NCBI GenBank assembly: GCA_965178125.1
Contig: OZ237756.1
Coordinates: 496,001-560,000, forward strand
Direction of reading: 5' to 3'
Source of the DNA: Bilabrum cf. latius
Taxonomy: Eukaryota
DNA length: 64,000 nt
Below, one piece after another: positions 1-40,601 of the stretch. Every line of letters starts with the position of its first letter. The stretch's first letter is position 1. The position numbers and the translations under genes are program-made. Below the pieces are notes generated by a model that worked only from the letters and a program-made list of their open reading frames with translations, did no database searches and was not told the DNA's origin.

Positions 1-3000
1 CGGCCGAGGCGGCAGCGGGAGGGGCTCCTTGGTCATTCCTCAGTGGCGCGCTGCTTGCATGCCGCTAGGACGAAGACGAGGGAGCCACAGGCCCGCGCGG
101 GGAGGAACTAAACGTGATGGCGCTCGCGGCGCCGTTGCCGGTTCCGTTGGTTCCGTTCACCACGCGGCCGCCGGCGCCATGCACGGGGGACACGACGCTG
201 TGAAGCTTCTTGCCCTTGCCCTTGCCCTTGCCCTTGCCCCTGCCTCCTCGCCCGATGCCGATGGCAGCAGCTGCCCCGCTCGAGGCGCCGCCTCTGGATC
301 CGGAGCCGAAACTGGCACCCGCCCCCCGACTGCCCTTGCCACTCTGCCCACCCCCCTCCTCCTCATCCTGTTCCGCCCTGGGTGAGCTGTCTGGGTAGGC
401 CACCCGCATGGCCCCGTCGATGTCGTGGTCGAATTCCATGGCGTCGAGCAGCTGGTTGAAGCGCTCCAGCTGGTCCACGACTCGTTCCCTGCTTTCTCCG
501 TCCACCACCATCGGCTCGCCCAGGTCCTCTGTGAGCAGCCGGCAGGTCCTGCCGATATTGATGGCGGTCTCCACCTTGTCTCCGGTGAGCACCCAGGTCT
601 TGATCCCAGCTCGTGCAAGGTCCGCGATGGTGCCGGGGACCCCTTCCTGCAGGCGATCCTCGATGGCCGTGGCACCAACGATCTCAAGGTCCTTCTCCAC
701 GTCGACCGCCACTTCGTGCAGCATCTCGTCCCTGTGGTGCACGTCCTCGTCAGCCTCCTTGTGCCTCTCCTGCCACTCTTCCACCTCGTCCTTGGACATG
801 CGCCTCCGGGCGATCACGAGGGTGCGCAGCCCAGAGGCAGCAAAGTCCCTCAGGTCGTCTTTCAGGGCCTGCAGCTTCGTGCCCTTGAGATCCCCTATGT
901 TGAGCATCGCAGAGTCTGCCCCCTTGCAGTACAGCCAGTACTCGTCATCCCTGGGATCCACCGTGATGACGCTCATCCTCTTCCGCTTGCTCGAGAACTT
1001 GTTCACACCGACCGACTTGAAGAACAGACGCTCGCCCTCCTCCCCATCACCCCCCGCCATGGGGTCCACCCGCACCGTCACCCCGTCGTTTGTCCTTCTC
1101 TCCAGCACGTACCCCATGTCCTTGGCGGCCCCAACCAGCGCCCCTTCGTCGGGCGACTCGGCCTGGTACACGATCTCGGTGCGTGTGCTGCCACCGCCGT
1201 CGTTGGTGCTGGATCCGGTCCGAGACCTCTCTCTTTGCCCACCACTTTGACCACCACTATCACCGCCGGTGCCGCTGTTCCCCGACTCCTGCGCCCCCGG
1301 CGACTCCTCTCCGTCCTCGCCCGACACCTCCACCTGCTCCGGCACAACGGTGTGACACACGGTCAGCACCGTGAGGAACGCGTCAACATCCTACCGCTTG
1401 CAACTGGCTGATGCGGAACCTTTCCCCTCGGCGCCGCGCGGGGACCCCCCTGCGGCGGTCTGCCTCCTCCCCTGCAGGATGTTGGTCATGCCGGCGTCCT
1501 TGAACTTCTTGTCGTTCCGCAGCTCGGGCACCCCAACCGAGGAGGCCCGCCTCGTGCGGCCACGCTGCCTGCCGCCCCCCTGCTTGGATCCAGAATCGGA
1601 ACGCGAGTGGGAGTGGCTTCCTGCCCCGCCCCGCTCCTCGTCCCCTCCCTGCTTCCTCTCCCTCTCCCTCTCGCTGAAGCTGTTGCGGTTGACGCTGCCC
1701 GAGATGGACACCGGGTTGGAGGAGCGGCGCGACGTCTGGGAGATGCGCGCCGGCTCCCTTGAGCCAGCCGGCCGAAGCCTGCGCTTGTTGTTCCGGTTTC
1801 TTTTGCCGCGTCCGTCGCGTGACGAGTGCGCGTCGCCGTCGTCGGTGGAAGGTTCGTCCAGATCGGGCAGCTTGCCGAACTGGACGCCCTTGATGCTGCA
1901 CACCTTGAACTCCATCACGTTGCGGGTGAGCGTGCCCTGTGCGGGGGGGAGGGAACTCAAAGAGAGTGAGGTGCATGAGTCATGTGACGAGTGCGTGCAA
2001 TGGTAGAAAACACGAAGGTGGGCAAAGCGGCAGTGCGGGCATGTGAGCAGCAGCAGGATGGCCACGACATGGGCACTGGGGCGAACAGTCCACCAGCCGT
2101 CAAGAATTCTATCAAAGTCACAGGAAATACGAGCAGTACCGAACTCACGGTTTTGTCGGAGAAGACATACTCGATCTAGCCCAGGTCCTGGTTCAGATTC
2201 GAGGTCCTTGCCTTGGCCGGCGTGTCGGTTTCTGGGTCGTACATCTCCGAGTCGGCGCCCACAAGCATCGCTTGAAGGTAGTTCACCATCTCCACTGTCA
2301 CATAGAGTGAAATCGGGATGCAGTTGTTGTACAGGATGATGAAGGTGAAGAGGTTTCCGATCCAGTCGGGGATCAGCAGATCGAAATCGCCCAGCATGAG
2401 GTATCCGAGCTCTGCCTCGTTCTACGCTTCCCAGATTACCACCGCGATGTCGCTGATGACTGATAGCAGAAGCTGGGCCCCGAAAATCACGCCGATGCAC
2501 AAGTTGATGATCTTCTCCACGTTGGAGAGCTTTGCTTTCCCCACGCCGGCCTTCTTCATGACCTTGGTGTCGCTGCCCGTTTGCATCACCACGCCCATGA
2601 CCCAGTGCGTGTTCCTCAGTGTGCACCCGCGCAGCAGCACGTTGTTGTAGCCGAGGGCCTGCCTGCCCGAGGCTGACTCGCCTGAGGGCGCCTTCTTGTT
2701 CTCGTTCTTGACCTCGAAGCGACCCGTGTACTTGTACAGCTGCGCGTTGGGCGGCATGGCGGTGACTGACACCTAGAGACCTGCGTAGTACTCGAGTTGT
2801 TCCTTGGTCGGCCTCAGGCTCTCGGTCATGTCGCTGAGGGGCGAGTCATCGTCATCATTGTTGTTATTTCCACCGCTGCTGCTGCTGCTGCCACCGGCCC
2901 CGCCGCTGGCTGCCCCCTTTGGCGTGCCGGCCCCGCTAGCCTGCTGCTCCTGCTTGTCGTGTTTGGCCACCTCGTCAGCGTCCATCATAACCGACTCCTG

Positions 3001-4077
3001 CTTCCGCAGCAATGCGCGGCGCCTCGGTTCCGCAATGTCCTGGTTGGACTCTATGCCCTTCTTCTTGATGCTCCTGGCTTCGCTCCTGTCGACGAGCAGC
3101 CCGCCCCCCGGCTCAGACGGACACGCCGCCTGCAGTGCCTTGAAGGAGGCCTTGCCCTTGAGGTCCGTCTCGCCGTCGATGTTGCTCGTCTCGATGTAGC
3201 AGGACCCGTCCGGCTTGCTGGAGTTGATCATGACCAGGTCTGCAGGGATGGGCCTGCCCCCCTTGATCCTGAGCACGTCACCCACCCTGATGTCCTTCCA
3301 GGCGACTTCGCGGTCCCAGTCCCCGTCTTTCGTCAGGACGTCCGCCTTGCGGTTGTTGGTCTCGGCGTCCGAGGCGTGCCGCTTCGAATCCTCGAAGCCT
3401 TCCTTGGCCATTGTGATTCCGAGTACCGCGATGAGGGGGCCCAGCGTGGAGAAAGGGGACAGGGGCGACGAGTACACTTCCGGGAAGTACCACCCGATGA
3501 GCATCATGGCGCTGATGACGAGGAAGTAGAGGTTGGCCACGCGGCGGAACTGCTCGAACAGGTTTGCCAGCGGGAATGTGATCCACTGGTACTTTGAGGT
3601 GCGGATGGAGTTGTCGGTGAACTGAGAGGCCTGGCCGCTGGGATCGTCTCCCCCCATCCAATCGAACGTTCGGTCCGGCTCATCTTCGGCGTGCAGGTTG
3701 CCCGATTCCGCTCGCTTCCTAGGATCCGAAGAGCCCCTTATGCGATTCTTTTGCCCGCTGCTGCTGCTGCTGCTGCTGCCGGTCGCCAAGCCGCTTCCTG
3801 ACTGCGACATGATTCCAACCGAGCCGGTGCCAGCGTTGTGCTCGTCGTCGTCCTTCTGATCCCGATCCTGCAGCAAGTGCTGATGGAGATTTTTACTGGG
3901 CGTATTTCCCATGCGTTGGCTGCCTGTCCCTCCGCCGGTGCTTGCCGGTGGATTATGAGGTGCAGACGGCCGCAACGGGCTCGATAGTTCCAATTGCCTT
4001 TTGAGGCCTGCCACCGGGTTTCTGATACTTGTGCCTGGCCTTGATTTGAAATCAGATGTGTTTCCCGCGCTAGCCAT
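1..4077 (-). CDS. P4-type ATPase (phospholipid flippase), 3' end outside the window
   Basis: Motifs [61 protein letters not shown](TAG)[25 protein letters not shown] and [18 protein letters not shown] intron at 2148-1937 splits DKT/GTLT. In-frame TAGs at 2773, 2422, 2176, 1391 and 65 are read through. Confidence 0.95.
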
Positions 4078-4567: not shown

Positions 4568-6018
4568 TCAATCATCTTGATCACTGATGGACTGGCCATC
4601 CGCCTCGAGTAGCTCCGCGCATTCCTCATGTCCTCCCAGCCTGGCCGCCTCCAGTGGAAGCACCCCAGTGCGAGTGCTTCCATCCTCTAGCACCACAGTA
4701 CCCTCGATTTCTAGCCCTCCTGCCAGCTTGCCCAGCCTTAGCCGCTTTCCCAGCTCCATGGGCCTGCCCTCTGCAGCTGCCTAGAACACCATCCCAGCGT
4801 CCCGCCTGGCATCCGCGGCATGCCGCCATCTGACCATGTGGCCGGTCCATCGAGTATAGTGCTTTATGCGGGCCGCAACTTGGTCTGGGCAGAATCGCCT
4901 CGCCGTATCGGCGGCGGTGAGTCCCTTCTGCGAGAGCGGATATATCGCACGAAGGGGGTCCAGAGGAGCATTGACCTCTGGTAGCAAGGCCGGCAACAAT
5001 GGGTGAAGCAGACTGGCGCTTACATTGTTGGTGATTGATCGATCAGCTCCGAACTCCATTAGTAGCACAGCACACGGGAGACCGCCGAACCTGACTGCAC
5101 CATGGAGCGCCGTGCTGCCATCCTGCGAATCATCATGATATGGCGAGCATGCTTTCGGGAATCGAGATGCGATGCAGCATTATAGGTAGATACAAATATG
5201 ATTGCTTGCATGCGATTGATTTGCCGACCTCACAGAATCTTGTTGGTTCATTTTGGCCCCGTTCTCGAGGAGGATTTGGGTGCATGTCGCGCGGCAGCAC
5301 GACGCAGCCGCCATCAACGGTGTCATGCCGCAACAATCTATGTGTATGTCGGCCCCATGTTGGATTAGTAGGCTTAAGCATTTGTCCCTGCCGTACGCTG
5401 CAGCCTTCCACACCGCAGTCTTGCCGTGCTGCGAACTCGGGAATGGGTAAACTTGGACTGAAAAAGCTTGAACAGCTTATGAGCGGCATACTCAGGCAAT
5501 CATTGCAGCAACTACCATGAAAAGAAGTATGATCTATACGATTGGGAGACTGAGACGCAGTATCATACTGGCATGGTACATACTGTGTGACTGCTGCTTA
5601 TTAGTCTTGCCAACTCCACCAATGCATGCTCAGCAAAGCGCACAATGACCCATCACGTCAATTGTAGGCTATATAAGTATATCGTAAAACCTGTTTGGCT
5701 TACTGAATCAACCTCGTCTAGCTTCTTATTAGTCACAGATTGGAGCGCCTAAGCTAGCGCTTCGACACTCCCCTTGTCTGTAGCGGCATGGATCGGATCA
5801 CTCCTGTATTAAGGATACTACATGGAAGTCAATAAACGTGTTGGGCCTGATTGGGCCAGTAACGGGACGCTGGGGGCCGTCAAAGGGCAAATCACAACTT
5901 TAGACGCCGATGGTGCCTGTAGGAAGTAGCCTACTTGCAAACTATTGCCGTCAGAACCAAACGTGTAGCCAGCATTTTCATGTTTAATTGTCCACAATCT
6001 TACATTTTTCCGTCCCAA
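4568..6018 (-). CDS. Multi-exon ankyrin-repeat protein ending in the shared RRDAGMVF(Q)AAAEGRPMEL module; start uncertain
   Basis: Ankyrin repeats GKTAVWKAAAYGRDKCLSLLIQHGAD, GMTPLMAAA, GSTALHGAVRFG and GLTAADTA separated by apparent introns. TAG at 4781 is in frame and the gene ends at TGA 4568. Confidence 0.7.
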
Positions 6019-12180: not shown

Positions 12181-13391
12181 GGGGGGGGACAACAGGTGGT
12201 GGTAGGTACACCAAGCGTTGAGGACGAGGGCTACGCTACGCTCGCCCCTCCTTTAAAGGCATATTTAGCAACTCAAGTGTTTCCCCTATAAACCTAAATG
12301 ATTTCACAGGGGGTTCCCCAAGAACCCCTATAGAACCCCTCTATGTACCCATTTTCAGATATAAAATTTACTCCTACGAAGTAGGGGTAAATTGAAGAAT
12401 TCTAATATTTAACCCCCTTATAAACTCTAACAGCAAAGACAGAGATGTTTTAGTAAAGTAGGAAAAAATGAAGAAATTAACCAAGTGTCCAAAATATCTC
12501 TGTGTTTGCTGTAGGAACGGAAGGATGAATTCCCAAGAGACCAAGAGACCAACCGAGGATTTCCCCAAGTGAACAAGGTATTTTATCAAGAGACCGAGGT
12601 ATGTTCCCAAGCGACAAACCGATAAACCGACCGATGAACCGACCGATGAACCGACCAAGGATTTCCCAAGGATTTCCCAAGGATTTCCCAAGGATTTCCC
12701 AAGGATTTCCCAAGCGACTAAATTGTTCTCCGAAGCAACCAAACCGATTACCCAAGAGATGATACATTATAAGGAAAACGAAAACGTATTTTAAGTCCCT
12801 TTGGAAAAGTCCCCCAAAAATTGAGAGATTTTACAGGTCAATTTTAAGAGACTTAGAAAGAATAAATATATTTTCCAATTAAAATTAAATGTTGTAATTC
12901 CTATGATGCCACCATAAAAATTAAAAGGAAAACGAAAACGTATTTTAAGTCCCTTTCGAAAAGTCCCCAAAAAACTTGTCAATTTTACTAATGCTAACGC
13001 CGAATGGGGTTCGGGGTTGATGTGGCGATGCGTTCGAGACTCGAACACAGGCTCCGGTCTACCAACGCGAGGTTGCAACCGCCAGTGCGACCAGCAGCTT
13101 GCGAGGCATTCCCTCGTCTCCTTCCTTAGGGAAGGGGGCGGGGCAGCGCGGCAGTGGCCGTTCCGGCTCATGCCGTTGTTTTGTTTAGTATTTATGTTGA
13201 TTGAACTGGAGACGAAGTGTGTCGAGTAAGCATCGTTGCATCAAGGTCAATTATAAGAGACTTAGAAAAAATAAATTAAGTTCCCTATTAAAATTAAATG
13301 TTGTAATTCCTATGATGCCACCATAAAAATTAAAAGGAAAATAAAAAACAAATTATAATTGTTTTCCAATTAAAAACACAAAAATTGATTG
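12181..13391 (+). repeat. Left terminal inverted repeat (~956 bp plus a 255-bp insertion)
   Basis: Reverse complement of 28519-29473 apart from the 12989-13243 insertion, about two substitutions seen by eye and a G8 versus C7 terminal run. Confidence 0.95.
12989..13243. mobile_element. GC-rich 255-bp secondary insertion in the left TIR (short copy)
   Basis: Absent from the right TIR, whose empty site reads AATTTTAC|AGGTCAAT. Both arms match 26851-27212. No target-site duplication. Confidence 0.85.
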
Positions 13392-13407
13392 CCTAAAGTG
13401 GAAATGT

Positions 13408-13441
13408 CGTACCTTAAGCATAACTTACGTAGTCTATAGTA
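13408..13441 (+). promoter_or_regulatory. Putative bipartite virophage promoter CGTACCTTAAG...CGTAxTCTATA
   Basis: The same arrangement recurs upstream of the helicase (~14826-14858) and pPolB (~16541-16572). Confidence 0.65.
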
Positions 13442-13452
13442 CAACCACATAA

Positions 13453-13692
13453 ATGGCAAAATCACAAAAGGAACTCGAGAATTACATCTTGGCGACCAAA
13501 GAATGTCTTAAATCAGTCCCGTTTATTACAACACGAGAAGCATACGATATGGCCAAAAAGTACCTTGAATTTACAAAGACTATTATTTGGATTAATTATG
13601 ATGATGACGATGACCTGCTTGCTGACTTTGAGGAAGCTAAAGATTTAAGTCAAATTGTAGTTGAATGGCACGAAAGTACCAAAACCAAATGA
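13453..13692 (+). CDS. Virophage hypothetical protein (79 aa)
   Basis: ATG to TGA ORF preceded by the conserved CGTACCTTAAG...TCTATAG motif. Confidence 0.65.
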   Translation: MAKSQKELENYILATKECLKSVPFITTREAYDMAKKYLEFTKTIIWINYDDDDDLLADFEEAKDLSQIVVEWHESTKTK

Positions 13693-13757
13693 TTTTTTCC
13701 CAAGAATTATTTTCCCTACTTTACAAAAGTAAGGAGAATGATACAACTATATAGCAA

Positions 13758-14813
13758 ATGAGTAGCGCCTTTGAAAGAATATTACAATCCCTAAACATTT
13801 ATCCCAACAGTCGTATTGTAAATTTAATGAAACGACCAAAACGACCCAAAGGAGTAAATCGACCCCACGTAAATGTACCAGAACCTCACCAAGTGGTACA
13901 AATGGATTTATTATCATTACCCCACGACAATAATTATAAATACGCATTAACTGCTATTGATTTACATACAAAGTAGGCCGATGCTGAACCGCTCAAAACC
14001 AAGCGTTAGAACGAAGTATTAAAGGCATCAAAAAAGATTTTCAATCGTGGTAATGTCCAGAAACCGCAGCACCGTTTGGAAATAGATAATGGAAAAGAAT
14101 TTAACGCTTTACAAAGATATTTAGAAGAGACCGATGTATTTGTACGAAGAAATAAAGCAGGTCGCCACCGACAACAGGCATTAGTGGAAAACCTAAATAA
14201 AACGTTGGGAAAAGCCATATTTACCCTATAGAACGTTAATGAGTTAAATACAGGTAATGAAAGCGTAGAATGGGTGGATATGCTTCCAAACATCATTGAA
14301 AACTATAATGAATATCAACTAGAAAAGTATATAGAAGAACCACCTTTACCCCCAGAACACTTCGACTTTACGTAGTGTAAAGGAGACGCTTGTAATATAT
14401 TGGAAGAGGGTACAAGAGTTCGTATACCATTAGAAGAACCCAGAAAGGCTACAAATTTACAGCAAAAATTATCCGGAAATTTTCGTGCTTCAGATTTACG
14501 CTATAATCCAGAAATCAAAACGATAACTAAAGTATTATTAAGACCGAGACAACCACCCTTATATGTTGTGGATTAGGATGATTTAGTGGCTTATCCAAAA
14601 GAGGAATTACAGATTATCGACTTTGATAATGAGGACAATAACCGAGATGCTCAGACAATCTTTCTCCCAAAAAAAATAAAATCCGAGAACGAAACAGAAT
14701 ATCAAATAGAATGGAAAGATTTTCCAGAACCAGAACATTGGACGTGGGAACCAAAGAATAAAATCCAAGAAATTGCTCCTAATTTAATTTTGGAGTGGGA
14801 TATAGAAAATTGA
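13758..14813 (+). CDS. Retroviral-type (rve, DDE) integrase with C-terminal chromodomain (351 aa with TAG=Gln)
   Basis: QMDLL, IDNGKEF and VENLNKTL supply the DDE triad. YQIEWKDFPEPEHWTWEP is a chromodomain motif. Five in-frame TAGs; ends at TGA. Confidence 0.93.
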
Positions 14814-14870
14814 GATGCCCCGTATCGTACCTTAAGGATTATTTTCGTATTCTATAGTACAACAACAAAA

Positions 14871-16533
14871 ATGTCATTCACTCTGCCGACTAAAGCGTAT
14901 TCGTCAAAAAGCCTTATGGACCTATGTAATGCCGGAAAACAAGAGGAATGTATTCAATACCTTAAACAATACTTCTACCGCACCCACGAACAAGGTGGCG
15001 GGGTGTATTTTCTAATAGCATCTGAATTAAATCGGAATAACATAAGTGATGACGAACCCCAGAAACCAGTCTGGTAGTTCCTTACGAATAAAAATATTAC
15101 TGAAAATTACCTGATTGGGGGACACTGTATTTACGCGATTGTGGGCAACAAAAGAGTAAAGACTTGGTCAGCACGAGACTGGTTCTTAAATGAGAATACC
15201 GACGTATTTACGATTGTAAGAAAATTCAATTCACCTACCGTTGATTACTGACAATCAAACAATTAACGTTATGGGTTCACCTATACTTACACGGGAAAAC
15301 TGTGGAAACATAGAGGATTTAACCGAAGACGCAAAAGCAGGCGCGACTATGATTTACGAACATATCCAGAAGGTGTGGACTTCAGAAGACAAAGAATAGT
15401 GTGATTTTGTGATGAAGTGGTTGGCTCACGTTATTGTGGGCGGAAAGAAGTTGGGTACAGCACTATATTTGAAATCTCCACAAGGAACTGGTAAATCGAT
15501 GATTATTACCTTCCTTATGAGAAAACTACTCGGATATACCCTCACACTATAGACGCTTACACACAAGATGCTTCAACCCGACGCCTTCAACTCAATTCTG
15601 GACGGGAAACTATTAGTCAATTTTAATGAAATTCCAAAAGCCTCGCCAACTATTTGGGACGCCATGTAGGCAACACTAAGAAATCTTATTACGGAAAAAC
15701 ACTTTTCCTGTAATGAGAAGTTTGTCAAATCCGAAAGTCGTCCGAATACATTCAATTTAATTATTGATACGAATGATAGTCCAATCAAAATCACCGAGGA
15801 AATCCGTAGATATTGTGTTTTGGATGTGAATACATCTAAGAAAGGAGACAAAGAATACTTTACAACACTAAAACGTTTTACAGAAAATCCAGAAGTGGCT
15901 AAGGCATTTTATATGTTATTGGTTGAAATCTATGATACATCACCAGACTTTACAGGACAATTCGCACCAAAATCAAAGAATTTTTACAAAGGAATTCTTG
16001 ATGGCGCACATCCGGTTTTAAAAATTCTAAAAGAAGAGTGGCTGGACGAAGGCAGAGATTTTAAAATGACAGTCTTGGAATTCCGCAATTATCTAAAGCA
16101 GGAACTGAACGGTAGAGTGAAGAACCTTGGTACACCTATGATTAAAACACTATTGTCAGAGGTAGGTGTTCATTCAACGATGAACAAATAGAGAAAACAA
16201 GAATTTAATGTGAAACACGCAGACTTACTAAAAGGCTTCCAATCTAAATTTTAGGCACTTCGTCATTCTGCTGAGATGGAAAAAGCAAAATCCGAGGTAG
16301 ATGTTCTTCGAGAGTAGATTAGAGAACTACAGAAACAAGTCGCATAGCAGTAGGAAACGATTGAATAGTTGGAATTAGAAAAGGAGATTACACCGACGGA
16401 ACAAGTCCATAAGAAAATCCAGAAACAGCTGAGTGTTGAGAATAGCATCGCTATTCAAAAATGGATAAAAGAGAACCCACCAAAGAACAAAAAAGGAAAA
16501 CTTTCCAAATTCCTCTGTAAAATTGAGAAGTGA
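14871..16533 (+). CDS. Superfamily 3 (D5-like) helicase with a +1 frameshift near 15245
   Basis: Walker A SPQGTGKS, Walker B LLVNFNE, motif C NLIIDTN and IRRY, then a C-terminal coiled coil with several TAGs. The first frame stops at TGA 15249-15251 and the helicase continues in the +1 frame to TGA 16533. Confidence 0.88.
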
Positions 16534-16590
16534 GTGAGTTCGTACCTTAAGAATAATTATCGTATTCTATAATATAATAGATACTATAGA

Positions 16591-18432
16591 ATGCCCGAAA
16601 TCGATTTTACGGAACCCCAAAGAACCAAATTGCGTCTTAATGGGAAACCAATATGGAGTATGCGATTTGAGAGCGAGGACCTTATCACCGTAAAAAATGT
16701 CTTGGAATTTATTCGTGATTACGACGATGGTGGTGAAAATCCGTTTGATGACTTTAAATTTAAGGTGAATATCAATTACCAAGATACAGGTTGGCGAACA
16801 CGAAGCACTTGGATTACTACAGATGATTTAGAAAATCAAGATAGTTTATGGGCGGGCTACGAAGACGACGATGACGACGAATATAGAAAATTGAATTCTT
16901 TTGAACTACTGCTTATTAGAAAGCCAGAACCAGAAGGCGGTGCTGACGAACATAACGATTGTTTATATAACGCTATAAAACAGGCTTTTCCTTTTTCAGT
17001 TGGTCGTAAGGTAAATGTAAAGAACGCAAAAGGCAAATGGAAAACTACTATTAAAAGAATGTCATAGTCCGACCTGAAAGAATTCTTGATAATTGGGCGT
17101 GATGACCCCGTTGATTACAGAAGAATACCAGAGATAGAAGACGAACTAGAAATACGTATTAACGTTGTGGGCGACTTTGAATACACATCTGGAAAAACTC
17201 ATTTTGACCGTCTTCTAACTGTATCATTAACAAATGGGCATTACAAGTATGTTCCCCCCATTAGTTAGAAAGAATTATTTACACCGCCGTCTAAAGAACC
17301 GTGTACGCTAATTACCCGCTTGTATCAATCCGAGAATTCTTATTTACTATTTGATGGAGACCGTGAGTATCAATCAGAAGGCATTACATCAGTTTCCAAG
17401 GATAAATTCATCTTTGAAGTCAAGTCCAAGGAAGAACTAAGAACAAAACACGAAGAACGGATGAAAAATGTAAGGGCATTAGCGAAGGAGACGGGTGGAT
17501 TTATGGATTTATCACGATTTATGTTTAGAACATCCCTATTTGTAAAGTCGTATTTCAGTAAGTTTTCCAAACTTTACCCTGCCGACCCGATTGACCGAAT
17601 GGAAGCACTTTGGATATCAAGAGCATCCGGTGGTGGATTGAATTGGGCAAACAAGGATACTACATTAAAAAACGCATACCAGTACGATATTAACTCATTT
17701 TATCCAAGTATTATGAAGGGTACATTTACATTTCCGGTTAGAAGGGGAACGTTCGTACAATTTAAAGTACCATCCAGTGGGTTCTATCCGTACGGCATTT
17801 TTAGGGTACGTATTGAAAATCTCAATTCTAAATTAGTACAAAAAAGAAAAAACAATTATTATACCCAATATGATATTAACCGAGCGATTGAGACGGGTGC
17901 TTAGGTGTCCCTAATTGAAGACGGTGAAGCCAACGCTTTACTTTACGATGAGACAACAAGGGTGAAGGCAAATGGACTGTTCAAAACGATGATTGAGCGA
18001 TTGTACGGTTATAAAAAATAGGGATTGAAGTGTGCGAAGGAGATACTAAATAATATTTGGGGTTCTCTATGTTAGAAAAACACAATCACAAAAACACTCC
18101 GAGATGGTGATTGTATGAATTTTAGACAATTAAAGAACGCGTATCCTAAAGCATCTGGACGACTTGTATCGGGTATACTATATGACGAAGAGTACGATTA
18201 CAAAACAGCCTACGCAAGAATGGGCCCCTTTCTGACTGGACTTGGACGAAGTAAATTGTCCAAAATGATTGAGCCATATCTTGAAAACATTCACTATGTC
18301 AACACGGATGGTTTCATTAGTGAGAAAGAATTACCTCTAAAGTTATCAACGAACCTTGGGGGTATGAAGTTGGAGCAATCAGGTGAATGTCAAATTATTC
18401 ACAGTAAGAAGAAAATTTTTAGAAAAGATTGA
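16591..18432 (+). CDS. Protein-primed family B DNA polymerase with N-terminal OTU-like region (613 aa with TAG=Gln)
   Basis: Motif A YDINSFYPS, motif B KEILNNIWG and motif C YVNTDGF. ORFs at 16591, 17086, 17320 and 18115 are all in one frame and are joined through TAGs. Confidence 0.92.
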
Positions 18433-18488
18433 CCAAAGCACCGCAGTTTACCGGCGGAACGGCATAAAAGTGTTTAGAAAAGATTGAA

Positions 18489-18761
18489 TTAAATAGTCTG
18501 CTTTTCCTTAAGCTTCTAAATTTCCTATCGCAAACTATCAAGTTCATCCATTATGTTAATTTGTTCCCTTTTTGTGTCTTCCTCTTTTTGAAGCCAATCA
18601 AGGTGTTTTTTTGTTCTACAATGATGTGATTTATTGTACTTCTTATATACGCCTCCACACGAGCATTGTATCTATTCTCCAAGTTTTTCCTTGTTTTTCC
18701 GGTAGTATTCACGGGCATACAGCTTATCCTGTTCTTTTCTTTCTGAATGACTGAGTGTCAT
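18489..18761 (-). CDS. Small zinc-finger protein (90 aa)
   Basis: YAREYYRKNKEK...CSCGGVY..NKSHHCRTKKH. Three in-frame TAGs, TAA stop and an upstream TCTATAG. Confidence 0.75.
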
Positions 18762-18797
18762 TTTTGTATTCTATAGTATTATACTATAGACTTAGAT

Positions 18798-20081
18798 TTA
18801 AGTATCGTAGGCAAATATTTTCCAAGCCTACTTAAGTGCTGTCTTCTTGGATATTCCTTTTTCTCTTAAAATGGACGCCATTTTCATCACTCTTGAACGT
18901 TTGGTTTCACACTGACATTGACCTCCAAATATTTCCAGATACATACCCGATACTGGGTCATTCGTATGCGAATGGATTTCTTTCATAATTGGTTTTCCAA
19001 CTGTTTTAGTTGCTAAATCCCAACCTTCCTTAAAATCTTGTCCAAAATCCCTTTCTGTGTTCTACTTATGTTTTTTCTAATTTTTCATTAAGGCGTTTCT
19101 GACATCTTCCGGTAAATCATTTAAACCTCTCCCAAACCATTTGGAAAAATAACCAGCCACGTCAGTAGCAGCATTAGCCACTCTCTTAGTAAATCCCGAT
19201 ACACTCTTAGCAATACTCTCTACATCCTACATAATAAATTGGTTTAAGGGTGGTGTCAAAAACCCATTTGTGCGCAGAACATCCTAAATGAACTTTTGAC
19301 AATTCAACGAGAAAGCACGGTACTGATAAAAGTTGTATTCTCCAATTTTCTGTAAAGTGGTCTCAAATAATTCCCTAACTGTTTTCTGAGGTTTTCCATT
19401 TATATTTACTTCCATAGTTTGAGTTTTCTTGTTGGTGGAAAATCGTGGGGACAAATTAACCCTCTCATTCTTCTCAAGATAAATCTTTTTTCCACCTCCA
19501 AGGTTCAATTCTAAGGCTAAATGGAAGAAATCATTATATCCGTGTTTATTTTTTAACTTTTTCATTTTCCCAAGGGTAATCCAGTTAAGCAACCGATTAA
19601 TCGCGCCACTAATAGGGGTTCTAATTACTTTCATAGCAATAATTGTCCTATCCCCGTACTGTTGAAGATTTCTCTGGACTTCGTTCGTATTTCCATACAC
19701 TACTCCACCCTTAAGCTGTTGCGCCAGCTAACTGCGCCGAGAGGGGGTGCTTCGCGGACCATCTTTAAGCTGGCTTCGCGGACCATCTTTTAAATACTAA
19801 TGAAGTGTGTTGGATTGTGTAGGTTTCTTCTAGGATTTCTTTTTTGGTTTTCCTTTTGTTCCCACACCATCTTTAAGCTGTTGCGCCAGCTAACTGCGCC
19901 GAGAGGGGGTGCTTCGCACACCATCTTCAAACTTAATTGCTTTTTCAAGGGCCTCTTTAGAATAAGGGAATTCACTTTTCCATGTCCTTGTTGTTTTACT
20001 CTTAGGTTCTTTGACACTAATGTACGTCTTAACAAAACCAGAATTCATTTTTCCGCCACTAAGTGAATAAAAACTATCCAT
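18798..20081 (-). CDS. Protein with permuted papain-fold (PPPDE/LRAT-like) peptidase domain (427 aa)
   Basis: His in FFHLAL precedes Cys in YRAFSLNCQKFI. One frame through TAGs from ATG 20081 to TAA 18798. Confidence 0.7.
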
Positions 20082-20107
20082 TTAGTATAGACTTGTATTT
20101 AAAAAAC

Positions 20108-20725
20108 TCATAGACGAGAACCAAGACCAAATGTTTTACGGACGAATTCCTCCAGTTGCTAAAAGGATGAATAGACACAGTACTAACTCTAATGTAATCC
20201 AGCGATTAAATTCGTTCTTGAGCGTTCCACAGACAATAAGTCCCCCGATTTTTTACCCTCACGGATTTCCTCAAAAAGACTGTGAGAAGGCACACACACA
20301 AAAATTGAACTTTCCTTAAATAAATCTTTCGCTAATTCCAACGAACCAACCATAACTATCAGACGTCTGGATTTCTTCGTGAGCCAATCCGCTTTAATTT
20401 TTTCATACACTAATCTTGATTGGGAATAATAAAAGAGGCGGTGGGTGCTTTCATCACCATCAACCAACATCTTTTCCATCTTTTGCTTTTCCTACCCTGA
20501 AATTTGAGCATTTACACACTCGTCTAAATCAATAATTAGCGTATCCTTATCCACCGCTTCTAGGGAACGACATAACGTAGTTTTACCGCTTCCTTTTGGA
20601 ACAACCACGCACGATTTCTGTTTCTAAGTTCCGTCTTTCGTCCACCAAGAATACAGACACTTGCTTCCTGTATAAGCTAAAGGGGCTAAAGTCCCAGCAA
20701 CCATTACAGCAGTTGATACTGACAT
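20108..20725 (-). CDS. P-loop NTPase / nucleotide-kinase-like protein (205 aa)
   Basis: Walker A VPKGSGKTT and LIIDLD. In-frame TAGs; ends at TGA 20108. Confidence 0.75.
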
Positions 20726-20780
20726 TGTTTTGATATACTATATACCAAGACAAATATTTATTGGTTTACCCTTTTCATAT

Positions 20781-22541
20781 TCACTGCTACAACATTGCGA
20801 GAAGTTGATTGCGAGAAAGAGATTTACCACCTGTTAAGCCCGAGCCTAACTTGGCACCTGTTAAGCCCTTGCCTTTCTTGGTAGTTCTCCTTGGCTTCCT
20901 ACCCATTCCCGCCATTTTAGCGATATCTGCTCCGGTTTCTATTGCTTTTGTAGCATCCCCTAAAAACTTCTTAGCTTTCCCAGACTTAACCCAATCAGCG
21001 GTTTTGTGTGCGAACTTTTTTAAGGCGTGTCTAATCTTTTTCCCAAGACCGCGACCGTGTAGTCCTGATAATTGACTTTCATATACAACGGGTAGTTTAG
21101 AGGCGGACAAAACGTCTGCCCTTGAGATGACACCCTGCTAATACTCGAACTTAGACCCATCAATCAAATTTAATACTCCTTCGTATAATCCAATCACAAC
21201 ACACTACACATTATCGTAGCCCACATCATCATTATTCTTCACTCGTAGGGTTATAGACAGTTGGTTAGACCCGTTGCTACCATTTGTCTAATCCACATCT
21301 AAGCTTAAGTCCTTGGCGGGGTCAATACATAACAGACCACCTGATAGCACCCTATCCCCGAATTTACGCATAGCCCATTCATTATATTGCTATTCAAGTC
21401 CGTTGCTTCTGGATAAGTCCCATAACTGCTGTGGCGATGCGTCGGCGAGTAATCCACTATGGTTATTCATCTCTATACTAATTCCATCAATTGCCATGAA
21501 TGTGTTTCCCTAATCTACTGAAAGGGTTGTAGGTGAGCGACGGGCAAACACAAATAAACGACTTGGAACTGAATTACTAAGCTTAATATTGTTATTGTAA
21601 AGAGTTGCTGTAGTACCTGCGGCAATTGTTGGACTATGACTTTGGGTATACGAAGTCATCTCAAAAATATCATACGAGACCTATTTAGGAAGCACAAATC
21701 CTGTTTTAGGTGTAATCTATTCAAGGTATAGGACTGGTTCTTGGACATCTACCGACTAAATGGTAGCAGTTAAGCCCTATTGTGGAATACGAGACCACAC
21801 GGTTCTACTCAGTTGAGACCAATTAATATTTAAGGAGAGTGTTTGAATTCCGTATATAGCCGTTTGTTCCTATTTACTTTCGTAGTGGAAAGGTGGGCAT
21901 AGTACTGCCTCAGTGCATTCAAAAACAAGAACACGATTTTGAGTTTGACCTGCGGGTACATCAGTATTATCCATTTGATACAAATTGTAAAATCCACTTC
22001 CTCGGGCTGGTTGGTCCTAAAGCACGTCCTCATACGAAGCAAGAGCGTTATTCGTAGACTAACTCATCATCGCGTATGAAGGCACATTATCGCGTCTATA
22101 CACACTATCAAGGCAATTCACACGGTGGACATCATCATCTAGTAAATGGGACAGAGCGTCCATTAGTTCACCGTTGTTCTGGGTATAACGAAGGTTATTA
22201 ATACCTACTGTCTGTGTTGCGATGGAGCGATTAAGTGGATAGGAGCGTGGAGCATCGTAATCTGGTCTAAAGGGTGCTAGACCACCTGCGGTTTGATTAT
22301 TCACGGAAAAGGTGATAGAAAATCGGCATGAGACATAGGCGCGGCGGCACAAACCTACACCTGAAGGCATACTAATATTCCAGTTGACCCCGCTGTTGTA
22401 GTTTCCGGCAGACCCGGAGGGGTTATATTTACGGAAAGTCCGGTTCTCATAACCTTCTTGAACTTCATACGGCTTCGGTTGTACATCTAGTGTTGCGGGT
22501 GATACTTTGACTGGCTGAAGGGCAAAGGTATTCAATGACAT
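20781..22541 (-). CDS. Virophage major capsid protein (586 aa with TAG=Gln)
   Basis: Virophage-MCP-like segments APRSYPL, VPSRLFVFARR, NHSGLLADASPQQLWDLSRSNGL and LCIDPAKDL, plus a basic Gly-rich C-terminal tail. About 13 in-frame TAGs; ends at TGA. Confidence 0.92.
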
Positions 22542-22582
22542 TTTTGTTTTCCTTGTATATTATATATAACGAATAAAATTCT

Positions 22583-22600
22583 ATGGGGTCGCGTCCCCAT
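22583..22600. terminator. GC-rich intergenic hairpin between penton and MCP
   Basis: ATGGGG-TCGCGT-CCCCAT in AT-rich DNA just downstream of the penton stop. Confidence 0.4.
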
Positions 22601-22619
22601 CCGACGAATTATCATTTTT

Positions 22620-23735
22620 TCAAAGTCCTTTCCGTTTCTTAAATAAAAACTTCACACTCACACTTCCGTGGCGTAAATAAAGAGGTCTTAGATTTGAATA
22701 ATTGTCTTTCCAATAAAGATTAAACTAAATCCTATCTACTGAATGTGTATCTAAAAAATCAATTTCGTGGAGAATATGGGGCTAATACTAAAGAACCTAC
22801 TAATTTACTGTTTCTGTATCATCTAATACACAATCCATATCCACTAATAAACTCTCGGTTCCTGAACCTGAATTTTGAACTGTATTAGTGGATTGTCCAT
22901 AGGCGGATTTCTAGGATATTGCCTCACTCCTCACTGGAAGACTTGAAGATGTGAAAACTATTCCGCGAAAAATCTAAAACTACACTAAACTCCCTCGTTC
23001 CTAGGTCATCATTAATCTGTAGTCTCCCGTTGGGTTTCCCTCGAAGTATGCCTAAGGTTCATATTTTCCAACAGAAGAGCCATCATCGAATAAAACATTG
23101 GTTCCTAGGGTTTTGAATAGAATACTGGCGTATAAGTCGTCATCTTGGATATCCATTCGTTCCATAGGAAAACCCGTCATCAGTTCGTTAAGGGCTTCAT
23201 TCAACACTAATTTAAATTTTTGTCCTGAGTTTTCCTCGTCGTAATCGGGATTTGCTACTAAACTGAACTTTCCATCTTTAAAGAGTAAAACCGGAACTGA
23301 TGTAATATCCGCTGATAAAGCATTCTATATGGTTTCGTTGAATAAATCAACAAAATGCTACACGGAATACATATAATAATAAGGAACAAACTACATAGGA
23401 TTGGAAAAAGATGGTTGGTTTTCCCCTGTTAACTAGGGTCTCCACTGAATGCTTGAGGTCCACAAACTTACTCCGTCTTCATCTGTAATGCTTATTCTAT
23501 ACACCGTTTGATTAGGATTTGAAGATGGATTTTTCACTTTATCGGTTTCTATGTGTGGAACCCATAAAGGTATTGAATTGGTGCTTATGGAAAACCGGAA
23601 TACTGACATCGTATAATCACCAACATCCTTATCTAATAATGGCTACTTGCGGGTTTCGCTATAGGTCGCTGGTTGGAAAGTATCTTCGTTATTTCGTATG
23701 TTTGCGGTAATGTAAAATCGGTCTGGAGAACTCAT
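22620..23735 (-). CDS. Virophage minor capsid (penton) protein (371 aa)
   Basis: N-terminal YSETRK(Q)PLL...YTMSVFRFSISTNSIPLWVP and C-terminal YWKD...SVKFLFKK, directly upstream of MCP. Missing from the ORF track because of TAGs. Confidence 0.88.
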
Positions 23736-23791
23736 TTTACTATAGACGTTTATAATTATGGGGTGGGTTTGATTACTTTTCTAAAGTATAA

Positions 23792-24283
23792 TTAAGATGG
23801 TGTAATAAGTGAACCTGACACTAAGGATTTCCAACTAGATGTAGAAGAACTGCCAATCGCCACATAGACATCGTTGTCGCTTCCATTATACACTAAAGCG
23901 CCCTTGAACTTTCGCTCTGCTGACGTATTAATAGGGGTAGAAGCGTCAGCCAATGTAGCTCCAGCAACCTCACTCAGCCCAACAACACCCTCTTGAGAAG
24001 TCTTGAATGAACCAACTAGTGAAATATCGCATCTTTCTCCTTCTTCGCTCATACTGAACTGACAACCAGCAGACGCTCCGTTTTTTCCAAACCGTAGAAC
24101 AGTTTCACCCCACTCCATATAAGGCTCTCCGTCTTTGAATTCAATACTTGGATTGCCTATGACTGCTCCCGTAGAGTTAGTAATTGCGGACACTTTAATT
24201 GCGTCGCTACTCACAACATTACACGTAATAGTTTGAGACATAAGGTCTAGACTGTTCTTAGATAGAAGATTTGAGACTGACAT
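23792..24283 (-). CDS. Virophage hypothetical protein, possibly virion-associated (163 aa)
   Basis: ATG to TAA ORF (MSVSNLLSKN...) in the structural gene cluster with an upstream TATA-like motif. Confidence 0.7.
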   Translation of the reverse strand: MSVSNLLSKNSLDLMSQTITCNVVSSDAIKVSAITNSTGAVIGNPSIEFKDGEPYMEWGETVLRFGKNGASAGCQFSMSEEGERCDISLVGSFKTSQEGVVGLSEVAGATLADASTPINTSAERKFKGALVYNGSDNDVYVAIGSSSTSSWKSLVSGSLITPS

Positions 24284-24348
24284 TTTATAGTATATCCACA
24301 GATATAATTTTTATCAGGTTGCCAAAAGATGTATATAAGAGGTTTTGG

Positions 24349-25530
24349 TCAATCTTTTCCTAAAAGATGTAATAGTTCCATAGCAACCTAATGATGAATA
24401 TTTTTAGTGCTTCCTTTTACTTTCTTGGCTACATTCATTGCTGTATCATAGATAATTCTTTTTCCACCTGTTAATCCTTTCCCCTTTTTTGGTTTTCCAC
24501 TTTCTTCTACAGTCATTGCGCGTGATGGTGGGTCTTCTAAATCAGGCTACTACATTCCATAGGGCGGACTAAACCCCGTAAATCGCTACACAGGTCTAGT
24601 AGCACGTTTTCCAATTCCCTGCTCAATTTCCATCCTACTCGGCATATCATAGTACTCACCAGTTTCTGGGTCCCACGCCCCCGGAGTGCTTCCTTGCGGT
24701 AGTGGTCTTTCATTGCTCGCTGCGGCTAATATGGCATCTAAGTCTTTTGATGTTTTTGACGCATTACTACTTGAACCCTCTTGAAAATGCTAAAACATAT
24801 TTGTCTGCCCCTGTGATGTTCTTTGTGAGAAATTCTTTCCCTATTCTAAATCCCACGCTATTCGTTGTTTTTCAGTTAAGGGTCTGTCTTGTTGTATTCT
24901 TTCTCTGGCTCTTTCCAATAACTATTTATACGCACCCGAAGACCTTTTTGGAAGCTGTACTTGTGTTGGAGCGGAAAACGTGTTTCTTCTTGTTGTTCGA
25001 GCAGGTGTTTGTAAAGATGTTGGCTACTAATCAATTCCCAACATTCCCTACGGTATTCGTTGTCCGGATGCCTCCTATATAACTTTCCCTAATTCTAAGA
25101 GTTGTTTTCTATCCTCAGCTGGAACTCTCTGCAGTCCTTCGTATCCTTTCCTTTGAAACCTCTCTATGTTAACGTATTGACGGGCGAGTTGTTGCTTCAT
25201 TTGTGGAGACATATTGATATTACCAACAAAATCCTTCAATGCTTTCACTGCTGGACTTACATTTTTACCCTCAATAATACCTTTCATTATACCAGATATT
25301 GACTTAGATATGATTTCCTCGTTGCTTTGGTCTGCCTATTTTCTCTACGCTGGAGTTCCATACCTTCCACTTTCTTTTAATCGTTCAATTTTTGCCCTTT
25401 TCCTTATAAAATCACTATATTCTGTTTCTAAATCTACGTCGTCCCTTGCCTGTAAATCTAACATTTTAGCATTGTCCAGTTCCCTTTCTAGGGCTTGCTG
25501 AATAAGAGCATTCACTTTAGCAGTTTTCAT
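24349..25530 (-). CDS. Virophage hypothetical protein, putative core protein (393 aa)
   Basis: Single frame through many TAGs to TGA 24349. Contains KKGKGLTGGK, which is shared with the MCP tail. Confidence 0.75.
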
Positions 25531-25595
25531 TTACTATAAGCTTTTATAAAAAGCTTGACCAAAAAATAAAAAATAAAGTGTTTGTGTATAGTATA

Positions 25596-25835
25596 ATGGA
25601 TATTGATAAGTGGATTATATAGAGAACCAAACAACTCGCGCTATAGAAAGAACAAGACGCTTTAAATAGAGTTAAAAACCATCATATTAAAGTTGGAAAA
25701 GGCCGTAGTAAGCCTAAGCGGAAAGTGAGCGCCAAAATGAAACGCCGCAATAAACTTGTAAAAATGGTGATGTAGTAGACTGGTATGAGTTTACCTCAAG
25801 CAAGTCGGTATATAAGAGAATAGAATATTATTTAA
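25596..25835 (+). CDS. Small basic virophage protein (79 aa)
   Basis: RRNKLVKMVM(Q)(Q)TGMSLPQASRYIRE(Q)N resembles a short helical motif I recognise from virophage proteins. Stop is TAA. Confidence 0.7.
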
Positions 25836-25864
25836 AGAAACTTTTATAACAAGTTTGACCAAAA

Positions 25865-26767
25865 TTATAGAAGGTAAGCCTACCTTTCTCCAATTAAATA
25901 CCTCGGGTAATTCCTATGAACACAAACCCACCGAGAAGGCATTTTTAGGACTTTAGAGATTTCTTGTTTCTCAAGTCCAATATAATTTTTTAGTAAATAC
26001 CTTAGAGAATGTGCGGAAGAACACTAAGGGAATATAACGAACTTATGACTTTCCGCAAGAATAATACGGGTACTTTTATAGTTGGTGGATAAATGACTTG
26101 TGATTAATACTGAAGTATTTGAGTGGCGACCAACCTATAATATTTCATCCTGTAAATGATTGAGGGCTTCCCTTAACTTCTTATCTTTGATTGTATCAAT
26201 ATCATCCAAGATTACTAAGGCGTCCCTTAATTCCTAATGAATATCAATCGGGTTCTCCACCAGTTCCTCATTTAAAATAATCCTTTTCAGTCCTTTCACT
26301 TCATCTAAGACTTTATCCTACTATACTCGTGAAAATAAAATAATTCTCCTGTTTGGAAACATTCTATGATAATTCTTAGCATACTTGGAAACCCAAGTAG
26401 ACTTCCCAGCACCTGATGGTGCGGTGATATATATTACCTCTCTTCCGTTTAAATTTGGTAATGATTGGAATTCACCCTATTTTAATGTAATCTCTTTATG
26501 TTTCTTTTCCTATGCTTTTTCATACAAGTATTTGATGTCTTCGTCTAGGGGTTCGACCTGTTTGATTAAGTGTCGTGCTAATAAATCCATTTTCCTCTGC
26601 GGAAATCGTTTCCCTGTAAGTGATGATACTTGAAAATCCTAAAATGACATACTATCATCTCCAAATTGGTTGTCTGTGTTTTCCGCCGTGTATAAAATAC
26701 GTTTTCCGTGAGTGTCATATGCGATGGGTGTTGATTTTGTAGTTTCCTTCCAAGAAAAATGAGCCAT
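25865..26767 (-). CDS. FtsK/HerA-type genome packaging ATPase (300 aa)
   Basis: Walker A APSGAGKS, Walker B LVILDDID, then L(Q)VGRH, ITSH and SRWVCV. Stop is TAA. Confidence 0.92.
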
Positions 26768-26850
26768 TTTAGTGTATTTACTATATGTTTTTATTTTTTC
26801 TAAAGTGTTTTGTCTTTTTGTTGAAAACTTATTTTGAATGATTGTCTTTT

Positions 26851-27212
26851 TAATGCTAACGCCGAATGGGGTTCGGGGTTGATGTGGCGATGCGTTCGAG
26901 ACTCGAACACAGGCTCCGGTCTACCAACGCGAGGTTGCAACCGCCAGTGCGACCAGCAGCTTGCGAGGCATTCCCTCGTCTCCTTCCTTAGGGAAGGGGG
27001 CGGGGCAGCGCGGCAGTGGCCGTTCCGGCTCATGCCGTTGTTTTGTCCCACCCTCCTCTCCCTGGTTTGGCTGATAGTGGAGCGGACGCGCAACCGACGG
27101 TTCTGGTGCTTTCCAACCGACGTCGGCGCGCGGTCTGCTCAGATTGGCCATGCTTTGCCCATGTCTTGATTGAACTGGAGACGAAGTGTGTCGAGTAAGC
27201 ATCGTTGCATCA
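26851..27212. mobile_element. GC-rich 362-bp secondary insertion (long copy) between the ATPase and protease genes
   Basis: Same arms as 12989-13243 plus a 119-bp hairpin-forming centre. AATGCTA occurs at both junctions. Confidence 0.8.
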
Positions 27213-27318
27213 ATGCTATCCACAAATTCCAAAACGGATTTTGTAGAAATACTTCTACGCTTAAATAGTGGTTAAGAGAATTCATCTCCCCCAATATATG
27301 TTTCTATAATAAATATAT

Positions 27319-27855
27319 ATGGATTATGCTCTTAGCGATAGTGATATTCGTGTTCTCCTCCAAACTCCACCAAATATTAAGGGGTTTCTTCCTACGTCGG
27401 TAAACATCGTTCCATATACAGAATTAGGATAGTACAATAGTATTGATGGATTATTTAGTCGTTGTAATTGTTGTATCATTCTATACCAAGAAGAAATAAA
27501 TTCTGGACACTGGGTGTGCTTATTTAAGCGTAATAAAACAATATACTTCTTTGACAGTTATGGAATTCGTCCTGATAGGCAATAGCACACAATGAGTGAA
27601 AGCGTGCGGAAACGTTTTTATGAAGACCCTGAGTTAATATATTTAATGTATCATTCTCCGTATAAGATTGACTATAACCCATATTAGTTTTAGGCGGATG
27701 GAATGGATATAGCAACCTGCGGGAGACATTGTATAGTTCGTCTTTGGAATAGGGGAAAAAACGCTGATTAGTATAAAAAGTGGGTGGATAAGGTTTGTAA
27801 GAAACATACATTAAATCCTGATGAATTAGTGTATTTATTGACGTGTCATTTATGA
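27319..27855 (+). CDS. Adenain/Ulp1-like capsid maturation cysteine protease (178 aa)
   Basis: GHWVCL (His), YFFDSYG (Asp) and Y(Q)F(Q)ADGMDIATCGRHC (oxyanion Gln and Cys). Stop is TGA. Confidence 0.92.
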
Positions 27856-28134
27856 ACTCCAAAGGTAAAAATGTGAGAAGAACTTTGGGGTTCTTGGTTT
27901 TACTTCGATACCGTGTCGTTTGAAGTATCTAAATTGGCGGTCCGTATCTAAATGATTTAAATGGCTGTAATACCCTATTCTATCGTAAAATTGCTAATAC
28001 CGCCTATCACCAAACGATGTAATATATTCATCATTTTCGTCAAAAACATCATACTTCTTATTCTTGCGTCTTGAGGGTGCTTTAAATAGAAAATTCTCAA
28101 CAACCTTTTCAAAATCGTAGGTATGTAGCTTCAT
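27850..28134 (-). CDS. Small viral protein, DUF5754-like (94 aa)
   Basis: SRRKNKKYDV...FGDRRY(Q)QFYD...HLD..R..YFKRH...PKFFSHFYLW resembles a motif common in giant viruses and virophages. The family name is from memory. Confidence 0.7.
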
Positions 28135-28518
28135 AAGTACTTTATAGTATAGTCTTCTACTTATATCAAAGCCCGAGCTTCTTGTATTCCTTTAGTTTTT
28201 CGTGTAATTTTTTCCAAATACGTGGATTAATTTGCTTGACAATATGCTCTATCATCAACTCCTTTAAAAATGGGTTCATTTACTATAGTGATATAGAATG
28301 GTCTTAATTATCATCTCTTGGGAAATCCTTGGAAAATTAATTTTAATATTCTATAATTTGTTTTTTATTTTCCTTTTAATTTTTATGGTGGCATCATAGG
28401 AATTACAACATTTATTTTTAATCTTTGAAAAAGATATCAAAAGAGCGGAGGGCAAAGCCCGAGCATCTTGGGAAATTAATTTTAATATTTCTTTGTATCC
28501 TATATTGTCAAAATTTTT

Positions 28519-40560: not shown

Positions 40561-40601
<41 letters not shown>

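Follow-up and report, generated by a model that had tools for sequence, protein, structure and literature searches.

The window, that is, the whole 64-kb stretch of DNA that was analysed, contains a host-integrated virophage at positions 12182–29473, which was delimited by its 955-bp terminal inverted repeats (TIRs), the ACAGC sequence found on both flanks and its Pfam domains. According to the Pfam search, the virophage carries an rve integrase, pPolB, the Sputnik-type major and minor capsid proteins, and an ATPase; it also has a helicase-like gene. The internal stops of the translated virophage genes (13665–28134) are all TAG, by which a decayed virophage was ruled out, and the Pfam domains span these codons. 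TAG makes up 91 of the 4107 codons in 12 virophage ORFs and 54 of the 9768 codons in 11 host ORFs; examples of host ORFs with TAG read through are those at 1957–4077 (−), 39559–44169 (+), and 44368–53448 (−). A TAG in a host P4-ATPase occupies the position of the Gln in the LGQIEY motif of yeast DRS2, and among the neighbours of host TAG codons Gln is 2.9-fold enriched (10 of 108). The residues of ATPase homologues at the TAG columns form a polar mix, which excludes Tyr as well as Leu without pointing to Gln alone. These codons are read as a residue, probably Gln, by both the host and the virophage, and the virophage is intact and adapted to its recoded host. The helper giant virus should face the same TAG code. 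Among the literature listings there was no report of TAG readthrough in a virophage, and the recoding common to host and virophage may deserve more attention than the inserts described below.

A conserved 12-nt motif precedes three replication-side genes (13407, 14825, and 16540) and a TATAGTA motif is located shortly upstream of many virophage genes; both are likely promoter elements of the virophage. Reading TAG through does not unite the helicase-like region at 14871–16536, which consists of two ORFs (126 and 420 aa) in different frames. The 108-aa ORF of the right TIR (28861–29187) is cut in the left TIR (12466–12797) by a stop at 12570, which is one of the two differences between the TIRs, and tandem repeats of 11 and 12 nt occur at about 12618–12714. 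A diverged tandem duplication of approximately 3.6 kb (31914–32307, 56963–60430, and 60597–63929) contains ORFs without Pfam matches and has partial copies near 4714–4840 and 32000, and it is possibly another repeat family. A recurring GTGTGACGAGTG-like motif was seen inside host coding sequence on both strands (36524, 40745, 42756, 42948, 45987, and 51512), and a 32-nt tandem repeat lies in host DNA at 33946–34137.

Two GC-rich inserts interrupt the virophage on its + strand. The first one, of 255 bp, is located at 12989–13243 in the left TIR only, while the second one, of 362 bp, occupies 26851–27212 between two divergent genes and is upstream of both, at 83 bp from the ATG of the packaging ATPase and 106 bp from that of the protease-like gene. 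Their GC content is 56% and 60%, respectively, compared with 37% for the virophage without the inserts. The left 196 nt (196/196) and the right 47 nt (47/47) of the two inserts are identical, and the centres between them are 12 and 119 nt long, exactly at the coordinates and with the arm lengths that the earlier note on this DNA had given. After removal of the 255-bp insert, 953 of the 955 positions of the TIRs match, and the right TIR represents the empty site with zero duplicated bases, in agreement with the previous claim of an insertion confined to the left TIR and devoid of a target site duplication (TSD). The TIR also contains a 154-nt tandem unit (12766–13391 and 28352–28889), and the site of the 255-bp insertion has a paralogous empty site between 12834 and 12835. 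The empty site of the 362-bp insert was found as a joint between 26850 and 27213 in contigs of two (X2 and X6) of the four public runs examined. TSDs are absent at both sites, each of which was compared with its empty allele. An apparent TSD at the 362-bp site, AATGCTA, was rejected because it is the start of the element itself and the empty-site joint skips exactly 362 nt. On the + strand, the insertions lie between C and A and between T and A, and no shared core of the two target sites is visible. With TAG read through, both sites fall outside the viral ORFs, which account for 86% of the insert-free virophage, and this part of the former description is likewise correct. BLAST detected no further copies of the element in the 64-kb window.

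To resolve the structure of the inserts, contigs of the four public runs X2, X6, X7, and X8 were placed on the 26400–27700 stretch (the sample type of X7 and X8 was guessed to be RNA, X8 being also graded as probably DNA), and the runs X11–X20, which had small shares, were left out. Behind 27046, contigs of X6, X7, and X8 enter one common body sequence, which begins with the 12 nt that make up the centre of the 255-bp copy, and one common body sequence also precedes 27067 in all four runs. Contig records 17 (X7) and 22 (X8) contain B directly joined to A (27067–27212 followed by 26851–26874), and A, a 20-nt spacer, and B could be read in contig records 18 and 23. Repeat A thus comprises 196 nt (26851–27046), as defined by the loose end behind 27046 and the joins between the end of B and the start of A, and repeat B comprises 146 nt (27067–27212), as defined by the loose end common to the four runs. 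The A2–B2 spacer of 20 nt (27047–27066) is bounded by the loose ends at 27046 and 27067, and its edges are good to a few nucleotides. Together, the four junctions describe a parent of the structure A1(196)–body–B1(146)–A2–spacer–B2, which was built from separate junctions, a single spanning contig being absent among the pieces listed, and the body of which is visible for 30 nt at each end only. No filled junctions of the 362-bp site were present among the pieces listed. In X7 and X8, the element is covered and the virophage flanks have 0 depth (9 of 30 bins covered, five contigs placed per run), which fits a mobile element, although contigs cannot show absence.

The contigs had some further peculiarities. 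The consensus of X2 behind 27046 is a blend of two contigs (agreement 0.63), and a third, unrelated continuation behind A is hidden inside it. In X2 and X6, a variant of A has 18 AT-rich nucleotides inserted with A89–103 (26939–26953) on both sides, that is, with a 15-bp duplication, which resembles a truncated non-LTR insertion inside the repeat. In X2 there is also an additional 5′ flank, and A is followed there by a second, diverged start of the body (19 of 30 nt matching as counted by eye), while diverged copies of A were found in X6 (records 11–13); the diverged body start and A copies point to at least two subfamilies. In X7 and X8 (and in an X6 record of the same length), the contig of B is unbroken at the end of B and enters A by 24 nt, and a break lies 6 nt before A. 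RNA, circles, or tandem copies are possible explanations of this break.

Compared with this layout, the 362-bp copy is one A followed by one B without any body, at a site with an empty allele, that is, a solo AB repeat. The 255-bp copy consists of the whole A (A1, 12989–13184, identical to 26851–27046), the first 12 nt of the parent body (13185–13196, equal to the start of the loose ends behind 27046 in X6, X7, and X8), and the last 47 nt of B (13197–13243, identical to 27166–27212). With its body sequence and truncated B it is not a solo AB repeat but an internally deleted derivative. Consequently, of the “constant arms” suggested previously, the identity over 196 and 47 nt stands, but the 47-bp right arm is a mere tail of the 146-bp repeat B, and the “variable centre” has to be abandoned: the 12-nt centre belongs to the beginning of the body, and the 119-nt one is made up of the A2–B2 spacer and the first 99 nt of B. 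A cargo cassette with an exchangeable centre was ruled out, since the split-repeat junctions explain both centres.

We concluded that the inserts are real, recent, and polymorphic remnants of a split-repeat retroelement. It is highly probable that both derive from a single GC-rich element whose direct repeats are split, likely a Ngaro-type tyrosine-recombinase (YR) retrotransposon, which would have been inserted twice in non-coding virophage DNA and would then have lost its middle. Such a parent would encode RT/RNase H and a tyrosine recombinase, and its circular cDNA would have been integrated at the B/A junction, and therefore without a TSD. Recombination between A1 and A2 could then have produced the A–spacer–B structure of the 362-bp copy, similarly to a solo LTR, while the 255-bp copy could be the product of one deletion or RT template jump from body position 12–14 to B position 100 across a 2-nt microhomology; the next two nucleotides (TT) after 13196 fit both sides of this deletion. 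The shrinkage to 255–362 bp in non-coding DNA keeps all virophage ORFs intact, thus such remnants could be packaged. Alternatively, the 255-bp copy might be artificial, a full-length element collapsed during assembly or polishing, as its junction is not among the contig joints listed, which belong to the 26400–27700 stretch with the left TIR outside. This is very improbable, however, given the precise empty site with clean termini of the element and the microhomology at the junction, which is typical of real deletions.

Searches for relatives of the element were largely empty. Exact-pattern scans found 0 matches in IMG/VR, JGI metagenomes, and GTDB genomes, INPHARED gave one chance match of 27 nt (E 0.3), and none of the 80 related virophage loci collected by the ATPase alignment had a BLAST match to the element at E ≤ 1, while GC-rich patches occur in 20 of these 80 loci. 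Querying with the MCP returned 0 viral loci. The best Rfam 15 hit reached 19.5 bits against a gathering threshold of 60, which corresponds to miRNA-hairpin noise, and nothing above chance was found on the inserts. ARAGORN detected no tRNA in them, and the sigma-70 promoter scan, which is irrelevant for a eukaryote, was empty.

These data also bear on the idea that the inserts are an independent parasite of the virophage with an exchangeable centre, either a structured RNA or a cassette of SINE, MITE, or Helentron type. The folding of the whole element (z −4.6 and −4.8 for the two copies against shuffles), the Pol III-like boxes, which recall SINEs, and the terminal and subterminal inverted repeat with a 3′ hairpin on the minus strand, which recall Helentron ends, speak for it. 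Nevertheless, we regard it as extremely improbable: the four junctions largely refute it by explaining both centres as parts of split repeats, the TSD, the poly(A) tail, and the T/T target are all missing, neither an Rfam match above chance nor a tRNA was found, and the folding excess originates largely from A–B pairing, because A and B reach no more than z −2.3 and −1.9 when folded separately. The independent structured mobile RNA proposed in the earlier note is thus unsupported, while its other proposal, a solo repeat or non-autonomous derivative of a Ngaro-like element, fits the four junctions. As to the particular classes, a MITE needs TIRs and a TSD, but here the first 6 nt of the termini agree at only 5 positions and the TSD is lacking, and a tRNA-derived SINE was rejected as both the poly(A) or simple-repeat tail and the TSD are missing. 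Non-autonomous Helitron2/Helentron elements have a terminal and a subterminal inverted repeat and a 3′ hairpin, and they are inserted between T and T. The minus strand of the element resembles such ends, yet three C–A mismatches break the helix there, and the C/A and T/A insertion sites on the + strand do not suit this class.

The assignment of the parent to the Ngaro group is a separate question. We infer it from the layout and the context, the RT, RNase H, and recombinase genes of the parent being outside the visible body; the Pfam scan of 18 ORFs of the window found neither an RT nor a YR. Beyond its layout, a Ngaro element is characterised by Gag-like, RT/RNase H, and tyrosine recombinase ORFs in the body and by the lack of a methyltransferase domain, which PAT elements have, while gene order and host range set VIPER apart. 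Two of the features expected of a Ngaro element, split direct repeats and lack of a TSD, are present, but split repeats equally fit PAT, TOC, Kangaroo, and VIPER elements and are therefore non-discriminating; as far as the available texts describe these groups, they have the A1–B1–A2–B2 layout in common with Ngaro. C. burkhardae, the protist whose virophages contain Ngaros, has the standard genetic code. A parent of PAT/TOC/Kangaroo or VIPER type, or a non-coding element with split direct repeats, is compatible with this shared layout and with the readthrough of TAG in the present host, unlike in C. burkhardae, and Ngaros are reported as absent from Halocafeteria in the available part of the preprint on that genus. 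On the other hand, in the literature examined the split-repeat elements reported in virophages are Ngaros only, and according to the available text of PMC8547959 these are GC-rich and prefer intergenic DNA and TIRs, like the inserts here, which makes the non-Ngaro parent unlikely. A DIRS1-like element, which needs long inverted terminal repeats and an inverted ICR, was rejected, as the repeats are direct here and A aligns poorly with reversed B when only Watson–Crick pairs are allowed (151 of 3000 shuffles).

The predicted folds drew attention to the pairing between A and B. The region A30–43 (26880–26893, and also 13018–13031 in the 255-bp copy) is complementary to the last 14 nt of B (27199–27212 and 13230–13243) with 11 Watson–Crick and 3 G–U pairs, and the predicted helix runs to the final base of B. 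The three non-Watson–Crick pairs are G–U on the + strand and C–A on the minus strand. A helix of this length from the terminal base occurred in 5 of 5000 shuffles and its duplex energy was reached in 1 of 2000, in tests that were chosen after seeing the fold. In a similarly post hoc scan, the terminal 14-nt window of B was the only one of 34 windows with z < −3 (−4.5) against A. The above Watson–Crick-only alignment, being marginal, speaks against the pairing. A looser pairing reaches as far as about A75 and takes in the last ~47 nt of B (1 of 1000 shuffles, post hoc); 47-nt windows starting at B76 and B91 are on a par with the terminal one (z −3.7 and −3.6, the terminal 47 nt with A30–~75 giving −3.8), thus the breakpoint of the 255-bp copy is not uniquely marked. 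In the B1–A2–spacer–B2 module constructed in silico, A2 30–43 is taken by the end of B1, not by that of B2. In the B1–A2 folds this helix is local across the junction with pair probabilities of 0.76–1.0, the crossover is located at the top of the stem, and a short GCAT–4 nt–ATGC palindrome lies across the B/A crossover.

In these models the A–B end pairing is a candidate self-priming or recombination hairpin. The primer role is the least sure step of the proposed mechanism and can be put forward only tentatively: A30–43 of the transcript would pair with the end of B2, would be cut, and would prime first-strand synthesis, after which the cDNA would copy B2, the spacer, A2, B1, the body, and the rest of A1, and the missing tips would be rebuilt from the B1/A2 junction. 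Fold-back priming of the B2 end on A2 was rejected, since the single-copy spacer would then be skipped and B2 loses to B1 in the fold of the module. Instead of a primer, the B end with A30–~75 may form a hairpin around the B/A junction of the cDNA, that is, a folded attachment site of the tyrosine recombinase. The local helix across the junction with its high pair probabilities and the position of the crossover at the stem top with the palindrome suit this function, as does the single-stranded cDNA of DIRS-1 described in the available text of PMC7192593. The three mismatches, which are G–U or G–T on the + strand and C–A on the first cDNA strand, rather favour RNA, even if three of three is a small number, and the two target sites are without a visible common core. 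The attachment site seems doubtful to a similar degree as the primer. Either way, the A–B end pairing is a testable candidate for the primer or the recombination site of YR retrotransposons, the primer of DIRS-1 being called unknown in the available text of PMC7192593. The literature on priming, hairpins, and Pol III in Ngaro and DIRS elements that was covered does not describe such pairing, and subscription work (e.g., by Goodwin and Poulter from 2004 or by Poulter and Butler from 2015), where it may be in print, was outside this scope.

Other parts of repeat A also have a predicted structure. The three hairpins noticed previously are present as sequences at A44–58, A114–128, and A132–147, but the + strand folds form only the third of them in the 255-nt copy and only the first in the 362-nt copy. 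In the fold of the 255-nt + strand the third hairpin is extended to 14 bp (A124–155, 26974–27005), and in the variant contig of X6, which has 6 changes and 4 gaps, 4 of the changes being listed, all three listed changes in the stem preserve this pairing and the fourth is in the loop. Repeat A further contains, on the + strand, a weak Pol III A-box-like site with two mismatches to the consensus at A9–19 (26859–26869), a B-box-like site at A44–52 (26894–26902), and the only T4 run of the element at A191–194 (27041–27044), at the 3′-end of A. The A and B boxes together were found in 5 of 3000 shuffles and the joint layout including T4 in 6 of 20000, as counted post hoc. The Pol III unit in A is a weak lead, because a lax A box also accompanies 6 of the 14 background B boxes of the window, and the B box of A is at the same time half of a palindrome.

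The pairing and the Pol III-like boxes raise the possibility that the 255-bp and 362-bp copies are themselves mobile non-autonomous elements, which were copied in trans by the RT and recombinase of the parent and inserted in their short form. The 255-bp copy retains all of A and those 47 nt of B that pair with A30–~75, the Pol III-like boxes in A begin at +9, the RT of DIRS-1 acts in trans (PMC7192593, available text), and both copies are recent as judged from their identical arms and the 2 differences in the 955 positions of the TIRs. Each form was seen once, however, and both are without an internal B/A junction, whose counterpart in DIRS-1, the ICR, is essential there according to the same source; besides, transcription by Pol III would terminate with A, at the sole T4 run, and the B76 and B91 windows pair with A as well as the retained one does. 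Mobility of the short forms is accordingly rather doubtful, and loss of the middle after insertion is preferred.

The boldest combination of these elements is that the missing primer of YR retrotransposons is concealed in the split repeats: the RNA's 5′-end (A30–43, loosely to ~A75), perhaps made by Pol III from A, would pair with the 3′-end of B2 and prime after cleavage, the 255-bp copy would be a minimal mobile unit with both signal halves riding in virophages, and the element would stand midway between split direct repeats and inverted ends of the DIRS1 type. We consider this combination unlikely as it stands; an intermediate of this kind was not observed according to PMC4157794.

The closest counterparts of the inserts are found in the virophage elements of C. 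burkhardae (EMALEs). About one in four of these carries a Ngaro of the A1–[ORFs]–B1A2B2 type, and five EMALEs contain solo AB repeats, with a bias to intergenic sites and TIRs (Hackl et al., PMC8547959, available text). The supplement of that paper, as far as available, has a 437-bp Ngaro entry for Cflag_215, one of the five solo-AB EMALEs, and a few AB-repeat reads were described in reactivated virophages in the accessible part of Koslova et al. (PMC10945749). Like the Cafeteria burkhardae solo AB repeats, the present inserts are GC-rich A and B remnants in intergenic DNA or a TIR of an AT-rich endogenous virophage, and the parent has the same A1–body–B1A2B2 layout as the Cafeteria Ngaros and left a remnant of similar size (362 bp compared with the 437-bp entry). 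This likeness is one of description, not of sequence comparison with the Cafeteria families, and, unlike in the Cafeteria case, the host here reads TAG as a residue. Neither the deletion form of A1, 12 nt, and the tail of B nor the A–B end pairing is described for Cafeteria Ngaros in the available texts of PMC8547959 and PMC10945749.

The 362-bp copy is also similar to SIRE of Trypanosoma cruzi, which consists of A2, a short spacer of about 30, and B2 (185/30/220) of the split-repeat YR retroelement VIPER and for which the available text of PMC6681497 leaves open whether it is mobile or a remnant. In contrast to the insert, SIRE is a larger, dispersed genomic repeat without any virophage context, and VIPER is kinetoplastid-restricted according to the same text. 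The internal copy of the end-to-end junction and the complementary ends are shared with DIRS-1 of Dictyostelium (PMC7192593, available text). Unlike DIRS-1 with its long inverted terminal repeats and inverted ICR, the element has direct repeats, and its inverted match is short, offset by 29 nt from the 5′-end, and dependent on G–U pairs. The sizes of the repeats (A 196, B 146) resemble those given for the Xenopus Ngaro DIRS-53_XT (A 236, B 152) in the source as available. Self-priming itself is known in some LTR retrotransposons, Tf1 being one. As there (PMC5006619, available text), the 5′ sequence of the transcript would loop to a complementary site and prime reverse transcription, but this site lies just inside the 5′ LTR in the LTR retrotransposons, whereas the element would have it at its extreme 3′-end. 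A retrotransposon remnant in a virophage in a protist is a known nesting, which appears here in another host.
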